Of a stretch of 40,346 bases of DNA, positions 1-40,346 are shown piece by piece. Each line of letters opens with the position of its first letter. Position 1 is the stretch's first letter. The notes beneath the pieces are model-generated. The model was not told where the DNA came from, made no database searches, and saw nothing but the letters and a program-made list of their open reading frames with translations. This DNA comes from a virus. The stretch is taken from UHGV virus genome UHGV-0260710; one strand, given 5' to 3'. The translations under genes and the position numbers were made by a program.

Positions 1-422
1 CGCTCACCAGTTACCGGACTTGTAGTCCAATCGTCATGGAATTTAGCACCTAGCAACTTCAAGAATTTAATGTGAGACTTATTGCCTGACCACACGTAGT
101 TCCAGATGGTCCCGTATTGGTCTAACATTAAGTCCCTGTACTCAGAGATACGCTTTATGAACTCTCGCTTCTCTTTAGGTCTCAGCTTATAGACCAGACC
201 GGAAGTCAAGAACCATACGTTATCCCCTTGGTTTCCACCATAGGCAAACACTTCGCCTACACCGTTAGTTAAAACCACAGATGACGGAGATAGGTGCTTA
301 AGCAGTCTTTCAGAGAGACCAACGGTTGACCCGTAGTTTGCTTTGCACTCATTAACATCATCTGCTGAAAGATGCCACAGAAAGTATTGGACATCTGGTT
401 CCGTAGCCTTGCGAATATACAT
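1..422 (-). CDS. gp13: Internal virion protein A (gp13-like), 3' end runs off window start; ATG at 420-422 with AAGGAG RBS
   Basis: Hand translation from 422 gives MYIRKATEPDVQYFLWHLSADDVNECKANYG... with no stop for 140 codons; lies after gp12 and before gp14 (at the window end) as in T7. Confidence 0.6.
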   Translation of the reverse strand, partial: MYIRKATEPDVQYFLWHLSADDVNECKANYGSTVGLSERLLKHLSPSSVVLTNGVGEVFAYGGNQGDNVWFLTSGLVYKLRPKEKREFIKRISEYRDLMLDQYGTIWNYVWSGNKSHIKFLKLLGAKFHDDWTTSPVTGE

Positions 423-18741: not shown

Positions 18742-19224
18742 TTATAATGAGTCTCTTAAGGCTACCGCCTCGGCTATGGTCTTGGCATATAGGACCACTC
18801 GCTCTCCGTTGACCACCTTCTTGATACAGTAAAGCTCTCGACCTTTCACCTTTGAGATGTGACGTTCTCCGGTAGTGTTGGTGGACATCTGGCCTTTGTT
18901 CTGGTTGTTCTCTGAGTGAGACACCAGTCGCAGGTTGGACATCCTGTTATTAGAAGGGTCCCGGTCAATGTGGTCAATCTCCATGCCGTCTGGTATGGGA
19001 CCATATGTCATCTCCCATATTACCCTATGAACCTGTAGATGCTTGCGGCCCCACGGTGTCCTGACGTTTATCGTCCAATAGCCGGACTTCTTCTTACTGC
19101 CTACCTTTCGTCCAGAGTGGAGGGCCAGCCCGGAGGCCGACCTTTCGTCCACTTTAAATCTTGACTGTAGGATTATCCTCAGTTCCACGCCACTGGTCGA
19201 ACGAGGGATGTCGCAATGAGCCAT
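18742..19224 (-). CDS. HNH homing-endonuclease-like protein (extra relative to T7)
   Basis: 160 aa; [41 protein letters not shown] core; 5' end overlaps the ligase 3' end (an in-frame GTG at 19150-19152 is an alternative start). Confidence 0.8.
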   Translation of the reverse strand: MAHCDIPRSTSGVELRIILQSRFKVDERSASGLALHSGRKVGSKKKSGYWTINVRTPWGRKHLQVHRVIWEMTYGPIPDGMEIDHIDRDPSNNRMSNLRLVSHSENNQNKGQMSTNTTGERHISKVKGRELYCIKKVVNGERVVLYAKTIAEAVALRDSL

Positions 19225-20623: not shown

Positions 20624-20693
20624 GGTGTAGCTCCTGGTTGAGTGAGTTAGGGTTAATCATGAAGGCCACGACTTTGAGTCATGACCTTGAGTC

Positions 20694-20716
20694 TAATCCT
20701 ATAGTGATAGTTTAGG
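20694..20716 (-). promoter_or_regulatory. Phage RNAP promoter (TAAACTATCACTATAGGATTAG)
   Basis: Family motif upstream of gene 1.1, as T7 phi1.1A/B. Confidence 0.7.
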
Positions 20717-25039: not shown

Positions 25040-25197
25040 TGTTGGTTATCCTCAGCGTGCAAGCTGTCGTGTATGCGCTTGCGGCCCTCGTAGACCGCCT
25101 TCAGGTGACGTATAGCCGCATCGTGGTTTAACTGCCCGGTCTTGACCATAATCCGGGCGTTGGTGACGTGGTGCTGGCATAGACCGTAAGTTACCAT
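25036..25197 (-). CDS. Small hypothetical early ORF (53 aa), translationally coupled to Ocr
   Basis: ATG shares the A of the Ocr TGA stop (TGATG); hand translation [53 protein letters not shown]. Confidence 0.35.
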   Translation of the reverse strand: MVTYGLCQHHVTNARIMVKTGQLNHDAAIRHLKAVYEGRKRIHDSLHAEDNQQ

Positions 25198-25709
25198 CAC
25201 TCGCAGTCATCCTCAGCAGACGCAGGGTCGAACACTACGTTATCGTTGATGTCCTCGACCTTCAGGTGGCGACCTATCGCATAGTGATCTTTGGCACATG
25301 CAGTAGCGACATCAAGTGATACAGCTTGCTCAACGAATAGGCCTGTTTTAGCGTCTACTACCCAGTATTCTCCCTCCTCGTAGCAGCGCTCTTCAGGCTC
25401 GAACCAGACCACATCAGAGCTATTAGACACATCGTTATACAGTGCCTCATAAATGCGAGCTTGTAGGATGCGCGTTACGTCCTTGGTATCAGGCATCAGC
25501 CCAGAGTCTTCGAACTCATGGTCAATACCATCAGCAGCCATCACCGTGAAAATCTCGTGGTAATAGTGCGGAACCATATTGTCTACGACTTCATGTAGCG
25601 CATCGTAATAATCATCGCCTTCAGCTATTTCGTCGTACTGAATGCGCTCGTTAAATGCTTCAACGGTTGCAGCCAGCAGCTCATAGTATGCGTTAGCGTT
25701 ACGTTCCAT
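25197..25709 (-). CDS. ocr: Ocr-like anti-restriction protein (gene 0.3) with C-terminal extension
   Basis: 170 aa; core [36 protein letters not shown] matches T7 Ocr (117 aa); about 55 extra C-terminal residues. Confidence 0.85.
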
Positions 25710-25924
25710 AATTATATCCTCTCAAAGTTGTTTGTGTATGTTAGTGACTATCAGTCAGGACCCTGAGCCGCTCAAGTCAAGCCCGTCTCGCGGTAGACTC
25801 AAGGTCCTGTAGTTAATCACTATCGGCGCACATTAAGAGTTTATCCAGATTGTTAAAGAGCATTCCCTTCAGTCAGAGGACTTCAGGTAGACCATTTCAG
25901 TGTTGGTCGTCACCGTTGTGTCGA

Positions 25925-25962
25925 TGTGGTACAGCTTACATCTTATCGTCACTACTTGTCAA
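25925..25962 (-). promoter_or_regulatory. Candidate host sigma70 early promoter (A2/A3-like): TTGACA-18nt-TAAGCT
   Basis: -35 TTGACA at 25957-25962; flanking sequence resembles T7 A2/A3 (AAGTAGACAGCCTGATAAGTC..CGAAAAACAGG upstream; GTACCACAT...CCAACACTGAAA downstream), from memory. Confidence 0.4.
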
Positions 25963-26067
25963 CTGCTTTCTGTCATCTGCCTGTTTTTCGTATGACTTAT
26001 CAGGCTGTCTACTTAACCGGGATGACCCGGCGTCTTCACTATCCGGTTATTGCCGTGTCGTGTTGAC

Positions 26068-26103
26068 GGAAGCTATTAAGCCATAGTCTAGACCTATAGT
26101 CAA
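26068..26103 (-). promoter_or_regulatory. Candidate host sigma70 early promoter (A1-like): AT-rich UP region, TTGACT-17nt-CTTAAT
   Basis: -35 TTGACT at 26098-26103 with 17-bp spacer; first promoter-like element downstream of the end-repeat arrays. Confidence 0.4.
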
Positions 26104-26224
26104 TAGGTAATTTGAAATAATATTGATTGAGCTATCGTCGGCCCCATGGTGTAAGAGGATATAGTCTTTGACTAACATGTCTTAGACTTTAAGTCTATAT
26201 CCTTGTGTCTATTAACCGTTGGTC

Positions 26225-26480
26225 TCTGACTGTAGGTGTTGGTGTCTTATGGTTGAGACTGTAGGTTGTTAGACTGTAGGTTGTTAGAACTGTGGTTGTG
26301 ACTTATGGTTAGTGAGACTGTAGGCTGTAGGCTGATGGTTGTGACTTAGGGTCTGATACAGATAGAGACTCAGAGGCAGACCCATAGTCCCAACCTATCG
26401 TCCTTCCCTAAGCCATAGCCACAACCTATCGTTGACCTAACGTCTTGACCATCGGTCCAACCTTATGATAGACTGGGGGT
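26225..26480. repeat. Arrays of short degenerate repeats characteristic of T7-group genome ends
   Basis: 26225-26355 reiterates (G)ACTGTAGG(T/C)TGT / CTTATGG / CTTAGGG units (CCTACAG-type on minus strand); 26380-26475 carries CCATAG / CCTATCG / CCTAAG-type units in the opposite orientation; non-coding. Confidence 0.6.
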
Positions 26481-27117
26481 AGGGCCTTTGGTCTGGACTG
26501 AAAGAGGGCCTATGGGGAGACTTGAGGTTCTTGAACTGTGAGATGTGGTCTCAAACTTTTGGTCCAAAACTCATCGAAGACTGTAGGACACAGCCACTGT
26601 AGGTCAAGGACCGTAGGTCAGGCGACACTAGGATAGACCAATAAGTAGGATGACCCTAAGTGAGCTTCTCTTAAGGTGTTACCTAAAGTCCTTGACTACA
26701 GTAGCTAAGGTCAGTAGAGTAGCGTCAGCTATGAACTGACCTTAGGTCTTCCGCTCATGAATCGTTACCATGATTGCATTAATTGCACTGAGAGACCAGA
26801 GAGCATACGAGAGTCTCGACCCACCCGACCCACTGACTTCCAGCAGTAACGCCAGAAGCAAGTAGAACAGCAGCAAGAAACCTGTATGTAGCTCGATTGG
26901 TCGCCAGAGCTTTAAGTACAGCTTTGGTCTTTGCCATATGCTACATACCTCCTGTATCTATGGTCGGTGACTATCTGTATTGGAGGGATTATGATTAATA
27001 TCACCCTCCTTCCATCGGTGCAAGCCTTAGGTAAGAACTCGGAGTCTGCCTCCTAAGGTCTTGCATAAAGTCTGCATATGTATATTCACTACAGTAATAC
27101 TATAAGTAACCGGGGGT

Positions 27118-27140
27118 CTTCCCTATAGTGATAGTTAAGT
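27118..27140 (-). promoter_or_regulatory. Phage RNAP promoter near the right genome end (phiOR-like), TTAACTATCACTATAGGGAAGACC
   Basis: Family motif downstream of the last gene, reading toward the genome end. Confidence 0.65.
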
Positions 27141-27263
27141 CCAAACTCCTTGTAAAACAGTAGGTTAGACTGGTAGTCACGCATGGTAACTACCTGAGTT
27201 TTTATTCACATATAGCGACATAGTATTCACCATGAAGCTCCCTTCCCTTGGTATTCCTCCAGT

Positions 27264-27612
27264 CTATTGCATCCTGTAAGCTATCGGTAGCATATCTATA
27301 GGTAACACCGTCCTTCGTCTGGCTAGTCTTCCACTTACCTGAACACCTCTTAATACTGTGGGCCAGCACCTCATGTCCTGACTCTTTCCTCTTCTTACAG
27401 CATTAACCGAGTTCTGAGACTTTGTGGCAAGCCGTAGGTTTTCTCTACGATTGTTCAACTTGTTCCTGTCAATATGGTCAACAACCATTCCATCAGGCAC
27501 TGGTCCGTAGAACATCTCGTACACTAAGATGTGCACAAAATGCTCATGGACCTTGTAGTATTTACCGACCAGACCCGACTATACAGCCGGGAACGCTATC
27601 GTCGTACTTCAT
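27264..27612 (-). pseudogene. HNH endonuclease paralog split by a frameshift (remnant or requires recoding)
   Basis: GTG-initiated 90-aa ORF (27264-27536) holds the HNH core HILVYEMFYGPVPDGMVVDHIDRNKLNNRRENLRLA; 15 codons in another frame upstream (MKYDDSVPGCIVGSGR, with TAGGAGGATAA-ATG RBS) plus the open HNH frame (..GKYYKV..) align to the N-termini of the intact paralogs (..[13 protein letters not shown]..); coordinates +/-1. Confidence 0.45.
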
Positions 27613-27623
27613 TTATCCTCCTA

Positions 27624-29390
27624 TTAGTGGAACGTAATGTATGACCCTAGTCCCAGCTCGTCGTCCGTATCGTGAGTTACCCGGACCCCATTGTCCCAGA
27701 ACTCAGTGTGGATGGACTCGAAGCCTTTCCGTGGGTTCTCCATCTGTTCCTCCAGCCACTCCTCAGTGACTTCACGTTCGCCCTTGTTGGCATCCTTAGC
27801 CATAGACTCAACGAAGAACTGTACACCGATAGCCAGCGCATCAAGTCGGTCATCGTGTGCCAAGGCGCCACGTTCACGAGAGATACGTGTCATCTGGTAG
27901 AAGAGAGAGTAGATAGGGTTACGAACACCATCCTTATCAGAGGCCGACTGGTAGTCTTGGACGATAGCAGCAGCGTTAACGATAAGTCGGTGAGACCCCA
28001 TGATAGGCTCCAGAACGTCACAGATGCGTAGTTCTTTCTGCCCCTTACTCTTCACTTCAGTTACAGCCGCAGGATGTATACGGGCCGCTACAGGCTTGAA
28101 TAGCTCAAGGTACATACCATCACCGAAGTTACCCTCAATGACGTATTCGTTGACCTTCCACTTACGACCAATCTTAGCCAGTGCTTCAAGCGTAGAGTCT
28201 TCATAACCACCACGCATGCCGCCAACTTCCATAGCGAAGATGTAGCCGTTGAGCTGGTACAGTACCGCATATCCAGTTTCATCCTTACCACGACCACTAG
28301 GGTCAATGACCAGAATCTTCTGGGTGTACGAACTGAAGGCAGAACCTACAGTCTGATACGTGTGGTATGAGTCTCCCATGAGTCCAACGTTAGGAACGTC
28401 CTCACGCTTGTTCTGAGGGTTTGGCAGCCATTGGTAGACCATTGGGCTGGACGCTGGGTCCAAGTCTGCTACGATAAGGTCACGGAGCTTCAGAGGGTAC
28501 TTCTCGGCATCACTCAGGTTCGGGTTAAGCATGAACTGTAGAGCGAAGCCAGCTTTACCGTAGGACAGCTCACGTTCCTTCAGGTCAGTATCGTCGAATC
28601 GAACTTCATCGGTCGGACGCCAGTAGTAGGCCTCAGGGTCCTCTTCAAGCTCTGCCTGAAGCATCGGTGCCAGACGGTAGCCGTAAGACTGCCAGTCCTT
28701 CTTATCACGTGGATAACGAGCAGGCCAGATAGTAGTGGTGTACCCACGGCCTTCCAGCTCACGATACAAGGTCATCTCGTTCTGAGGAGTACCCAGATAG
28801 ATGATTGTACCTCCCGGCTTCAGGATAGCGTCGAACTCTTTCACAAGCTCTGATAGACGGTCTCGTGCAGCCTGAGTCGCTGAGTTGTTCGGAACCTCCA
28901 CGTCATCGGCAATCAGGATGTCAGCACGACTACCAGTCAACTGACCAGTGATACCAACGGACTTAACCGAAGGTGAGTGGTCTGGCTTGGCGGGTCCAAC
29001 GTCAAAACTGATAACCGCATCTCGCTGTCCCTGCTTAGGTTTGAGTTCCTGAAGCTGAGGCATGAGGTCGATGATTCGCTTGATGAAGATGGAGTTAGCA
29101 TCGGCTCGTTCCTTTGATGCCGACACAATCATGAACTTCAAGTCTGGGTTGTTCCATAGCTTCCAGACCACAAAGCCACAGGTCAGAAACGACTTGCCAA
29201 TACCACGGAAAGCCTGAAGGATGAAGCGGCGATTATCCCCAGCAGCCAGCTTCTTACACATATCTATCTGGCAGCGGGTTGGAACCGGAAGGCTTAGCGC
29301 TTTCCAGAGAACGAAGATGAAGAACACGAAGTCGTCCTGCATCCTTTGGGTCATTTCTGCCTGTCTTTCAGCTGGTGTTTTCTTAGACAT
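27624..29390 (-). CDS. gp19: Terminase large subunit (gp19)
   Basis: 588 aa; near-collinear with T7 gp19 ([124 protein letters not shown]). Confidence 0.95.
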
Positions 29391-29823
29391 AGAGTCCCTC
29401 CAACATTAGGTCCCGGACAGCGATAGCCTCCTCTAAAGTGGGACGTGTTGTGCGCATACGGACTCCCTTACGCATAACCTCGATGGCGTAGCCGTTCTGG
29501 TGGAACGATACGTTCTTAACTCCAGTCTTTGAGTCAGAATGACCTGAGGTGTTGCAGGAGTTCGCGCTTGAAGTAACTAGCCGGAGGTTGTCCAGCCTGT
29601 TGTTAGTTCGGCAACGGTCGATGTGATCAATCTCCATGCCTTCTGGTATGGGACCGTTGGTTAGCTCCCAGATTACCCGATGAGCCAGCAGGAGTCCATG
29701 ACGTCTAGTTCCTACCTGATAATACCCGTGGTTTCCAACACACCCAACGTCCTTACCTGAACGAAGTGACTTCAGGCCAGACTTACTGGACTCATCATAA
29801 GTATACGAATCACTGAGCATCAT
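29383..29823 (-). CDS. HNH homing-endonuclease-like protein overlapping the terminase start
   Basis: 146 aa; [41 protein letters not shown]; 3' end overlaps TerL ATG by 8 nt; absent at this position in T7. Confidence 0.85.
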
Positions 29824-30263: not shown

Positions 30264-30373
30264 AGGTGCCCTCCCGGTTTATCAGATTTCACGTAGAGTC
30301 TCCTCCACTAGTTAGTGTTAACCATAAAGGCCACTACATATAGTAATGACCTTGAGTCTAACACTTAAGAGAT

Positions 30374-30973: not shown

Positions 30974-33475
30974 TTAAGAGTTTAAAATAGAAGAATATTT
31001 AGTAACAACATTACCAGATACAGGTGTCGAATCTATAGCAGGTCTTGCTGTTGCCCTGATATTTAGCCCAATAACCCCTGAATATGCTACTGACTGCGTT
31101 CCCGCATAACGGTAACATGCAAGAGTTCCTCCGGACTTATGAGTCCACTCAACGTTTCCATTTGCTTGAAACAGAAAGATATTAGCAGATGTTGTAGTTG
31201 TCATGTCTCCTGTGGAAACTACATTTACTGGCTCAGTGGTGGCAACTTTGATCAAGTGATACCCGGCAGGGCTTGTTACACCTCCACTCAACGTCAGATT
31301 TACATTCGTTTTACGCAATGCAATCAAACTACCATAAGCATTGCACACAATACCTCCTAAGCCACGAATTGTGGCGGATGGTAACTCTGTATCTTCCGTT
31401 AAATTTATACTTCCTGCGTTGGTATAAACGTCGTTTATTTCAAGCATTCTGCAAATTTTGGCAGCATGTTTCAAAGATTTTAGACCACGCGCTCCATTGA
31501 AACCCCAATTTTCATCGTTACCGTTAACTGGGTCGATGTATAACGTTGAAGGTGAAACGCCTGTAACTTCATTAACTAAATCCCATTTCCCAAGTTTTCC
31601 GTACTGGAACTGGCCATTGTTAGGATTTCGTATGTTGACTACAGCTCCAGAGTTTATGCCGTCAAGGAACCTGTAACCGTTGAACATCATGTAACCGTGA
31701 ATATCTACAACACTGCGACCCTTAACGCAGTTCTTGACGTAGACCACTGAACTGTTTGCTATACTTCCGTCTTGAATGAAAAGACCATTTAGACGGATGT
31801 CAGCGTCTGAGTTGATAATATAGAAACAATGTTTCGCCTTACCACCCGTGGCTTCCATGTGACAACCGTCAACCTTAAGCCCACCGTTACTGTTGGCATC
31901 CCCTTGGTTAACATACATGAATGAGCAGGTTTCTGTTACACAATACCTGAACTGCACAGAACTGCGTCCGTACTGTGTAATTGCGACATCGCCGGTTTCG
32001 TCAAAATCTTCCGGTTTAAAAATTACCTGTTCTGAATAAGTTGAATCCTGTCCAAGTCGAGCAATGTAAGCGTTTTTCACCTCAGAGCCGCCGTTTTGCT
32101 CGTAGAAAACAGCACCTTGAGTCTTGTATAGAATCTTAGGTGTTGTGTGAACACTGCCCCAAGCAATACTGTGAAGCATACCAACCTTTGGAATTCTGGC
32201 GGTTGATGCTGTGCTTCCTGGTGTGTTCTCACCAATGCTTAGATTGCTAGTTGTGCATCCTGCGGCACCTAACCAACGAAGCCCTAACAATGTTCCTGGC
32301 TTTGTGATAATAGACAGGTTTTCAATATCGATATGGCGAGCGCCTGTTCTTACTTCACCACTATCAATTTGTGAGCCTGTTGGCAAAAACATTGGGTCAG
32401 AGTTTAATGACCATGTTGACCCAGATTTAAGATAGACATACGTACTAACAGCAGCCATGTTACCTTCACCAGAAGGCGGGTTGAAGTAAAAACCTTGCTG
32501 TACGATTCGGCGGAAATAAGAGTAACCGGGCTGGACAATCTGCACGCCGGGCGGGATAAAGATTGTCTCTGTGTGCATGTACAGGCCGCGCAAAACAACA
32601 CGCTTTGCTACTACATCCAAGTGTGGGTTAAGTTCTGTTGCTGTGTCTGTAAATGAAATCGGCATGTCGTTGATGTATTTAAACATAGCCTTTAATGCCT
32701 GTGTATCGTCAGAAATCCCATCACCAATAGCTCCGAATTGCTCAGGGGTTACATCATTTAATACATCTGCTAATTTACCCGATGGATTAATTCCGATTAA
32801 TTCAGCCCCGTCATTATTCATTAGGCTTCCTCTAAGTGATGCATCACCAACACTAATCCACGCACCAAGACCAACACCACCAGCAGTTTCAGGAGTTGAA
32901 CCCTCTGGAACGTTCTTTGGAAGCGTACCATCCCAGCGGTAATACTCACCATCCTCTTCCCATAGCAGGACCTCGTTCCATGTTGTAACGTTGAAGCCTT
33001 TCTCGAAGGAGCGACGGGTAATATAGCCAACTAGACCAGCTGCCTTGATACGCTCAGCGATTCGGCGTGCTTCGTCCTCGCTATCCTTAGCGTTGCCAGC
33101 AGAGCTACCAGCAGCATCGGCATATTCCTTCGCTAAGTCAACAGTTTGGTCTCGACCTTCTTCTGCAATATGGATAGCCTGAAGCTCTGCATTGGTCAGG
33201 TCACTAGCTGTCAACACTGAACCATTCCTGAAGTCTACCACTAAGTCAGTTCCAGTCTGACGGTGAATACGAACGATGTCGAAACCTGATTGGTCAACCA
33301 ACATCTCAATAATCGTTGGATTAAGGAATCGGTAATCTCGACCGACTTCCAGTACACGGTTCAGGGTAGGGTTAGAGCTATTCACCAGCGTAACAACAAC
33401 AAACGTTCTGGCTAGGTAGTCGAACTCAATCCTGTACTGAGTGTTTCCTGAAGGGAATTGTGTAATCGTGGACAT
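30974..33475 (-). CDS. gp17: Tail fibre / tail spike (gp17): T7-like N-terminal adaptor plus C-terminal pectate-lyase-like (beta-helix) depolymerase-type domain
   Basis: 833 aa; first ~150 aa align to the T7 gp17 N-terminus (EFDYLAR.FVVVTL, DYRF, DGS.L.A.DL..A..Q..H.AEE.RD.T.D); rest unrelated to T7, contains [19 protein letters not shown], typical of pectate-lyase-3 tailspikes; 3' half visibly AT-rich. Confidence 0.85.
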
Positions 33476-39725: not shown

Positions 39726-40313
39726 TTAGCTATGACCTGTAGGTGTACCTTTAGCAGCACTAATTGGCGCAGACCCACCAGAGCTTGATGCCCCAGAGAT
39801 TGACTCACCAGCAATGTACCCCTGCATCCCGGCGTTAGCAACATTAAGTGCATGAGCCAGTGGGCTGGTCTTGATGATTTTACCTTGGCCACGGATAGCA
39901 GACTTGGTGTTCTCAATGTTGGCGATACGGTTCCCGAAGATAGCCGTATAGTCGCGGTTGTAACTTTCGGTAATCCCTGCTCGCTCCTTGACTGTATCTC
40001 CTTTGACCTGACGTTCAATCCTGTCCATAGAGTTACCTTCCAGACCTGACTCAGCTACCGCAGCTCGGACCATGCCCTGATTGCGGATACCGTTTAACGT
40101 GGTCTCTGTCAGTTCAGCCATCTGCTGTTCCTTCAAGTCCCTCTCCTGCATCCTCAGGTTTGCATCAGAGTAATTCATCTGCTTAACCATCTCCTGAGCC
40201 TGACGATTCTGAGCGTCGATAGCAGCACCCTCAGCTTTGGCCTGTTGGGATGCGGACATAGTGGCCCCGGCTACAGCCATGATACCCATGCCGATACTTA
40301 CTGGTTCACACAT
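39726..40313 (-). CDS. gp14: Internal virion protein B (gp14)
   Basis: 195 aa (T7 196 aa); shared blocks (AEL, G..RAA..ES.LEG.SMDRI.R, E.Y.RDY.AIF, API.AAKGT.TG); AAGGAGG RBS. Confidence 0.85.
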   Translation of the reverse strand: MCEPVSIGMGIMAVAGATMSASQQAKAEGAAIDAQNRQAQEMVKQMNYSDANLRMQERDLKEQQMAELTETTLNGIRNQGMVRAAVAESGLEGNSMDRIERQVKGDTVKERAGITESYNRDYTAIFGNRIANIENTKSAIRGQGKIIKTSPLAHALNVANAGMQGYIAGESISGASSSGGSAPISAAKGTPTGHS

Positions 40314-40346
40314 ACGTCCTCCTTAGAGATTGTGAATAATTGAAAA

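Follow-up and report, generated by a model that had tools for sequence, protein, structure and literature searches.

Predicted genome termini and a single collapsed terminal repeat inside a circularly permuted K1F-like phage genome

The virion DNA of K1F-like phages is linear and carries the same short sequence at both ends. In phage T7, the RNA polymerase pauses at a class II signal in the concatemer junction, the terminase makes its cuts at the two repeat edges, and duplication of the repeat leaves each packaged genome with two copies. In the linear records of phages K1F (NC_007456) and EcoDS1 (NC_011042), the first 178 nt are exactly identical to the last 178 nt, and the EcoDS1 record annotates a "terminal repeat" and a "concatemeric junction" at 177-184. 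The repeat of phage Vec13 is annotated at 1-179, the same interval being annotated in phages Penshu1 and Peacock as predicted by PhageTerm. The records of many relatives start exactly at TCTCACAG, an end that was in part determined experimentally and in part predicted by PhageTerm. A length of 179 bp has been reported for the K1F repeat, and ends of relatives sequenced directly from phage DNA (run-off) gave repeats of 183-190 bp (PMC4925675); among close relatives of the phage described here, the length varies from 176 to 190 bp.

The sequence analysed in this study, referred to as the window, is the whole 40,346-nt stretch of the virus genome UHGV-0260710. Since every long ORF is encoded on the minus strand, and BLAST searches with the junction region and with both large halves matched hundreds of Kayfunavirus genomes of 38-41 kb (~90-96% identity), the window was read as the reverse complement of a K1F-like genome. 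Its length is typical for Kayfunavirus, and the T7-type gene set from 0.3 through 19.5 is complete, colinear, on one strand and present once, together with a single-subunit RNA polymerase and its promoters. No identical public record was found in the phage collection, in which the best matches were ~93-95% identical over 80-94% of the query. The sequence was re-linearised by opening it at 26543, in the phage forward orientation, and by appending a second copy of the repeat (40,526 bp); in this form it was colinear with K1F nt 1-39704 at a mean identity of 93%. Local gaps relative to K1F were observed in the distal tailspike gene, at an insertion near genes 18.5/19 (the HNH-domain ORF 29383-29823), at a 416-bp insertion after gene 19, and in some small early genes. 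With a probability of about 0.9, the window is predicted to be a complete K1F-like phage genome (genus Kayfunavirus, Studiervirinae, T7 relatives), written as the reverse complement, circularly permuted and opened arbitrarily inside gene 13, with the repeats of its two ends merged into one copy. An earlier note on this DNA had proposed a circularised assembly of a linear genome, with the terminal repeat collapsed to one copy, and this proposal is supported by the homology to genomes with defined ends and by the colinearity.

Nucleotide 1 of both K1F and EcoDS1 was aligned by BLAST to position 26543 of the window, on the minus strand, and their last nucleotides to 26365 (K1F) and 26364 (EcoDS1). 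The right boundary is thus ambiguous by 1 nt, the K1F record ending in ...GAGTCTC and that of EcoDS1 in ...GAGTCTCT. When the window was aligned together with the repeat-collapsed K1F and EcoDS1 junctions, the three sequences ran on unbroken in this region, and transfer of the EcoDS1 features placed the repeat at 26543-26364. A direct terminal repeat (DTR) of 179-180 bp, in a single collapsed copy, is assigned to 26364-26543 (minus strand) by homology to the repeats of K1F, EcoDS1, Penshu1 and Vec13, with which it is 93-97% identical (94-96% for K1F and EcoDS1, whose records repeat 178 bp). Homology alone predicts that the packaged genome begins on the left at 26543 (TCTCACAG...) and stops on the right at 26364 or 26365 (...GAGTCTCT); the virion genome with both copies of the repeat would be ~40,526 bp long. 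These physical ends, which we infer, agree with the earlier note in lying inside 26100-27120, and they narrow that interval to 180 nt. When a 180-nt query was used, the records whose position 1 coincided with query position 1 were those of K1F, EcoDS1, Vec13, PR_Kaz2018, LS2/LS3, Penshu1, Peacock and others. Among IMG/VR contigs found by a right-boundary 16-mer, four start exactly at TCTCACAG, two start within 1-2 nt of it, and eight hold the junction internally. Fourteen of 30 exact matches to GAGTCTCTATCTGTAT in viral contigs were discarded, as they were not homologous to the junction. In the C-run at 26473-26477 (minus strand), the repeat reads CCCCC in the window versus CCCC in K1F, EcoDS1 and most relatives; the extra C, which makes the repeat 180 nt long and not 179, may be real or a homopolymer error.

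A second copy of 26364-26543 was sought by a repeat search of the whole window and none was found, the direct-repeat families recovered being phage promoters and paralogous HNH genes. In this respect the window, with one repeat copy in a permuted circle, differs from the K1F and EcoDS1 records, which are linear with two copies, and resembles permuted Kayfunavirus records (MZ234021, OZ0357xx, Bas105 and several IMG/VR contigs), which show an internal junction, one repeat copy and an arbitrary start; these records are opened at other points, and none of them is identical to the window. An assembler would merge the copies from both ends, and the contig would close as a circle with one copy, the region as written then representing the concatemer junction. 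Alternatively, the sequence could have been obtained from intracellular concatemeric or replicating DNA, in which the junction naturally contains one copy, and not by computational collapse of virion ends. In form, the region as it stands equals such a junction. However, both origins give the same sequence and are indistinguishable here, the choice between them would change the history of the contig and not the location of the termini, and many isolate genomes in databases show the same permuted single-copy form; an intracellular source is considered improbable.

The predicted cuts fall within the boundary sequences GAGACCACA|TCTCACAG and GAGTCTCT|ATCTGTAT, both of which are kept in the window and in the aligned relatives. 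In the IMG/VR set, conservation of the right boundary is by construction, since the 16-mer was the search pattern. In the concatemer, the left cut site is abutted by a nearly invariant 33-bp block, CGATGAGTTTTGGACCAAAAGTTTGAGACCACA (26544-26576, minus strand), which contains the palindrome TTTTGGACCAAAA and is kept in 11 of the 12 relatives covering it. Folded as single-stranded DNA, the left-end block was no more stable than its shuffles (z = -1.14 and -0.32), and energy alone gives no grounds for assigning it a hairpin role. It is conceivable that this phage has other termini than K1F and EcoDS1, its cut sites being displaced or its repeat being of another length, as repeat length ranges over 176-190 bp among close relatives and the adjoining arrays vary in copy number. 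This is nevertheless judged even less probable than an intracellular source, both boundary sequences being conserved in the window and the aligned relatives. Four of the IMG/VR contigs retain the first ~60 nt of the repeat and its two boundaries but have a quite different centre; evolution appears to be much faster in the interior of the repeat than at its edges.

The repeat is directly followed by ATCTGTA (26357-26363, minus strand), located where T7 has its concatemer-junction pause motif ATCTGTT; the heptamer overlaps the "concatemeric junction" feature of EcoDS1. In the T7 class II pause signal, seven bases are reported to be strictly conserved for T7 RNA polymerase and are preceded by A, C or T. 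The sequence T-ATCTGTA, present in the window, K1F and EcoDS1, matches ATCTGTT at six of seven positions and differs at the last base. By analogy with T7, the polymerase starting at phiOR would transcribe gene 19.5, enter the junction and pause at ATCTGT, at the right edge of the repeat. The terminase (gp18/gp19) would then cut at the two conserved boundaries, and DNA synthesis would duplicate the repeat, yielding two copies per packaged genome. After cell entry, the host polymerase would initiate at a pair of A-type promoters a short way in from the left end, giving a transcript that would be cut at a hairpin before ocr. A tentative assignment, regarded as possible rather than probable, is that the elements invariant across the genus at the two cut sites, the TTTTGGACCAAAA-bearing 33-bp block at the left end and TCTCT|ATCTGTAT at the right edge, are the Kayfunavirus-specific processing signals, that ATCTGTA is a variant class II pause for the K1F-type RNA polymerase, and that the oppositely oriented heptamer arrays within the repeat and next to it are terminase binding or spacing elements. 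To our knowledge, no function has so far been assigned to the equivalent heptamer arrays of T7.

In the window, the flanking arrays comprise short repeats on the right side, upstream of the terminal repeat (CCTACGG, CCTACAG and CCTACAG; 26581-26617, minus strand), and a CCTACAG/CCATAAG heptamer array on the left side (26222-26356, minus strand), the counterpart of the T7 CCTAAAG array. Exact CCTACAG copies are concentrated here, with seven of the 26 copies in the window lying within the 374 nt of 26230-26603 on the minus strand. Dinucleotide shuffles predicted 6.5 copies over the whole window, and a uniform spread of the 26 copies would place 0.24 in 374 nt, the chance of at least seven being ~1e-8 by our own arithmetic. 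A period-15/43 array was detected by TRF at 26249-26350. The interior of the repeat contains a 31-36-nt periodic motif (CCATAG..CAACCTATCG, plus strand) that runs counter to the flanking array and pairs with it as six imperfect inverted repeats. The opposing arrays of short degenerate repeats noticed earlier are therefore real, and the copy number of the flanking array differs among relatives. An inverted repeat across the right boundary (26337-26355/26377-26395, z = -2.2) was rejected as a conserved structure. Its outer arm is not constant across relatives but follows the variable array, and the CAG of TATCAGACC is absent from several of them, so the inverted repeat was taken as a by-product of the opposing arrays. 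The pattern CGATAGGT, with three matches within 50 nt inside the repeat, forms a suggestive cluster, to which little weight was given since the pattern was picked post hoc.

On the late side, the last large gene is gene 19 (27624-29390, minus strand), encoding the large terminase subunit (Pfam Terminase-T7_RNaseH-like, PF22530, 6e-38). It is followed by a phiOR-type phage RNA polymerase promoter, ACTTAACTATCACTATAGGGAAG (27118-27140, minus strand), whose 23 nt are the same as those of phiOR annotated in EcoDS1 and whose core (27120-27138, minus strand) matches perfectly the consensus of the window's own phage promoters, nine of which were found, all on the minus strand. This agrees with the phiOR-like promoter described earlier on this side. 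Gene 19.5 (26779-26937, minus strand) encodes 52 aa, and 51 of the 52 residues are identical to EcoDS1 gp19.5. The stretch at ~25.7-27.1 kb had been described as the only long non-coding one; it does correspond to the one large gap between long ORFs, but it also holds gene 19.5. An HNH ORF that looks decayed (27264-27536, minus strand) lies just beyond the gap, which extends over ~25.7-27.2 kb. This ORF is held in the 416-bp insertion relative to K1F and EcoDS1, located at 27209-27624 between gene 19 and phiOR. It is a GTG-initiated ORF of 90 aa with an HNH_3 domain (Pfam, 4e-22) starting at residue 2, an in-frame stop just upstream and a likely C-terminal part in another frame. A homing-endonuclease pseudogene is the probable reading, frameshift errors in the sequence being the alternative. 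Two more HNH_3 endonuclease ORFs, both intact and on the minus strand, were found at 18742-19224 (160 aa), near gene 1.3, and at 29383-29823 (146 aa), in the 18.5/19 interval, where the window has an insertion relative to K1F. The two share a 116-nt stretch with 78% identity. In addition, a 64-nt direct repeat with 80% identity is present in two intergenic regions (20645-20708 and 30310-30373), one copy ending in the phage promoter core, and these copies may be paired modules of promoter and processing site.

On the early side, two host promoters are predicted. The first, an A1-like sigma-70 promoter (26067-26103, minus strand), shares 36 of 37 nt with the first host promoter annotated in the EcoDS1 record and aligns to T7 A1. 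The second is A2/A3-like (25933-25962, minus strand), with TTGACA, an 18-nt spacer and TAAGCT; its -35 aligns to the second EcoDS1 promoter and to T7 A2, and the -10 (TAAGCT) is our own putative assignment from the sequence. The earlier note had located host promoters on this side of the junction, which is in line with the homology to EcoDS1 and to T7 A1/A2; however, at 25.93-26.10 kb they lie just outside its interval. A generic scan of 25600-27300 for sigma-70 promoters and terminators returned five promoter-like sites (4.0 expected) and no terminators. Since both promoters identified by homology were missed by the scan, it was not counted as evidence. Upstream of gene 0.3, a long RNA hairpin was detected at 25742-25822 (minus strand; -39.4 kcal/mol, z = -4.75, with none of 200 shuffles folding as well). 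It resembles an RNase III processing site, a putative function suggested by analogy with the R0.3 site of T7. The apical part of the hairpin contains a 23-nt insertion relative to K1F and EcoDS1. The first early gene is gene 0.3 (25197-25709, minus strand), encoding the ocr DNA mimic (Pfam ocr, 4e-32).

The order of these elements (gene 19, phiOR, gene 19.5, short repeats, 33-bp block, terminal repeat, ATCTGTA, heptamer array, host promoters, RNase III-like hairpin and gene 0.3) matches that of T7, K1F and EcoDS1. The layout had been likened to that around the T7 direct terminal repeat, and direct comparison with the ends of T7 (NC_001604) bears out the likeness, with the same element order and similar spacings: the values for phiOR/19.5/repeat/A1/0.3 are 160/240/160/338/427 nt in T7 and 186/236/180/297/358 nt in the window. 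As in T7, the repeat starts with TCTCACAGT, ATCTGT follows it directly, the heptamer array is located just inside the left end, promoters A1 and A2 are alignable, and gene 19.5 occupies the same position, phiOR and 19.5 being upstream of the right copy of the repeat. However, several differences from T7 were observed. The repeat is 180 bp long, compared with 160 bp in T7, most of it is not alignable to T7, and its interior carries the motifs opposite in orientation to the flanking array. The heptamers are CCTACAG/CCATAAG instead of CCTAAAG, and the motif is ATCTGTA instead of ATCTGTT. There are two host promoters, compared with three in T7, and a scan with the window's promoter consensus found no phiOL-type phage promoter between the repeat and gene 0.3.

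The two ends of the window join inside gene 13. The 5' part of this gene (internal virion protein A) begins at an ATG at 422 and its frame runs off position 1 (1-422, minus strand), and its 3' end after circularisation corresponds to 49 nt including the stop (40298-40346, minus strand). Gene 14 (internal virion protein B, 195 aa; 39726-40313, minus strand) starts within the end of gene 13, overlapping it by 16 nt. That gp13 is cut by the window start, with gp14 beginning at 40313 near the window end, is as the earlier note had it. It had also calculated that an exact join would extend gp13 by 16 codons into gp14, and past the join the frame indeed finishes its open codon with 1 nt and continues for 15 sense codons to a stop, ending at 40298. 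The joined gp13 has 156 aa, the same length as K1F gp13, with only a few residues different. For comparison with relatives, the last 600 nt and the first 600 nt were joined; they aligned as a single piece (query 1-1199) to K1F and more than 200 other records. Identity over the 1199 nt spanning the join was 95.2% with K1F and 96.3% with Bas105, without gaps and with no mismatch within 6 nt of the join. The same 16-nt gp13/gp14 overlap is annotated in K1F and Bas105. Of the two explanations offered earlier for the overlap, the first, that it is real, is favoured by its conservation in K1F and Bas105, and the second, a missing base or bases, is contradicted by the ungapped join. Given this join, the length of gp13 and the conserved overlap, no base is missing at 40346/1; the overlap is genuine, and gene 13 can be left as it is despite its apparent break at the window ends. 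The last alternative, in which the window would be only part of a larger replicon, as the earlier note had allowed, or of a prophage, with accidental circularity, has a negligible probability, being refuted by the seamless join inside gene 13 and the end-to-end colinearity with K1F, with the T7-type gene set 0.3-19.5 complete and present once and the length typical of the genus.

As a complete and permuted genome, the window is closest to K1F and EcoDS1, which it matches in the boundaries of the repeat, phiOR, gene 19.5, the A1-like promoter, the gp13/gp14 overlap and the whole gene order. It differs from both in the insertion with the apparently decayed HNH gene after gene 19, from K1F in lacking a 65-bp K1F segment after 19.5, and from EcoDS1 in lacking a third host promoter. 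A further observation concerns gene 17, encoding the tailspike (ORF 30974-33475, minus strand), in which the distal half to two-thirds (~30975-32900, GC 0.44-0.45) does not match the endosialidase gene of K1F at the nucleotide level. The encoded protein has 833 aa, compared with 1064 aa in K1F. This mismatch suggests a different receptor or capsule specificity.

The arrangement described here is already known and ordinary, combining a textbook T7-type terminal region, in the form characteristic of the K1F genus, with a common assembly artefact, and it reveals no new biology. Its value is practical. Before annotation or deposition, the sequence should be turned to the other strand, opened at the predicted true genome start (26543, minus strand) and completed with a second copy of the repeat.
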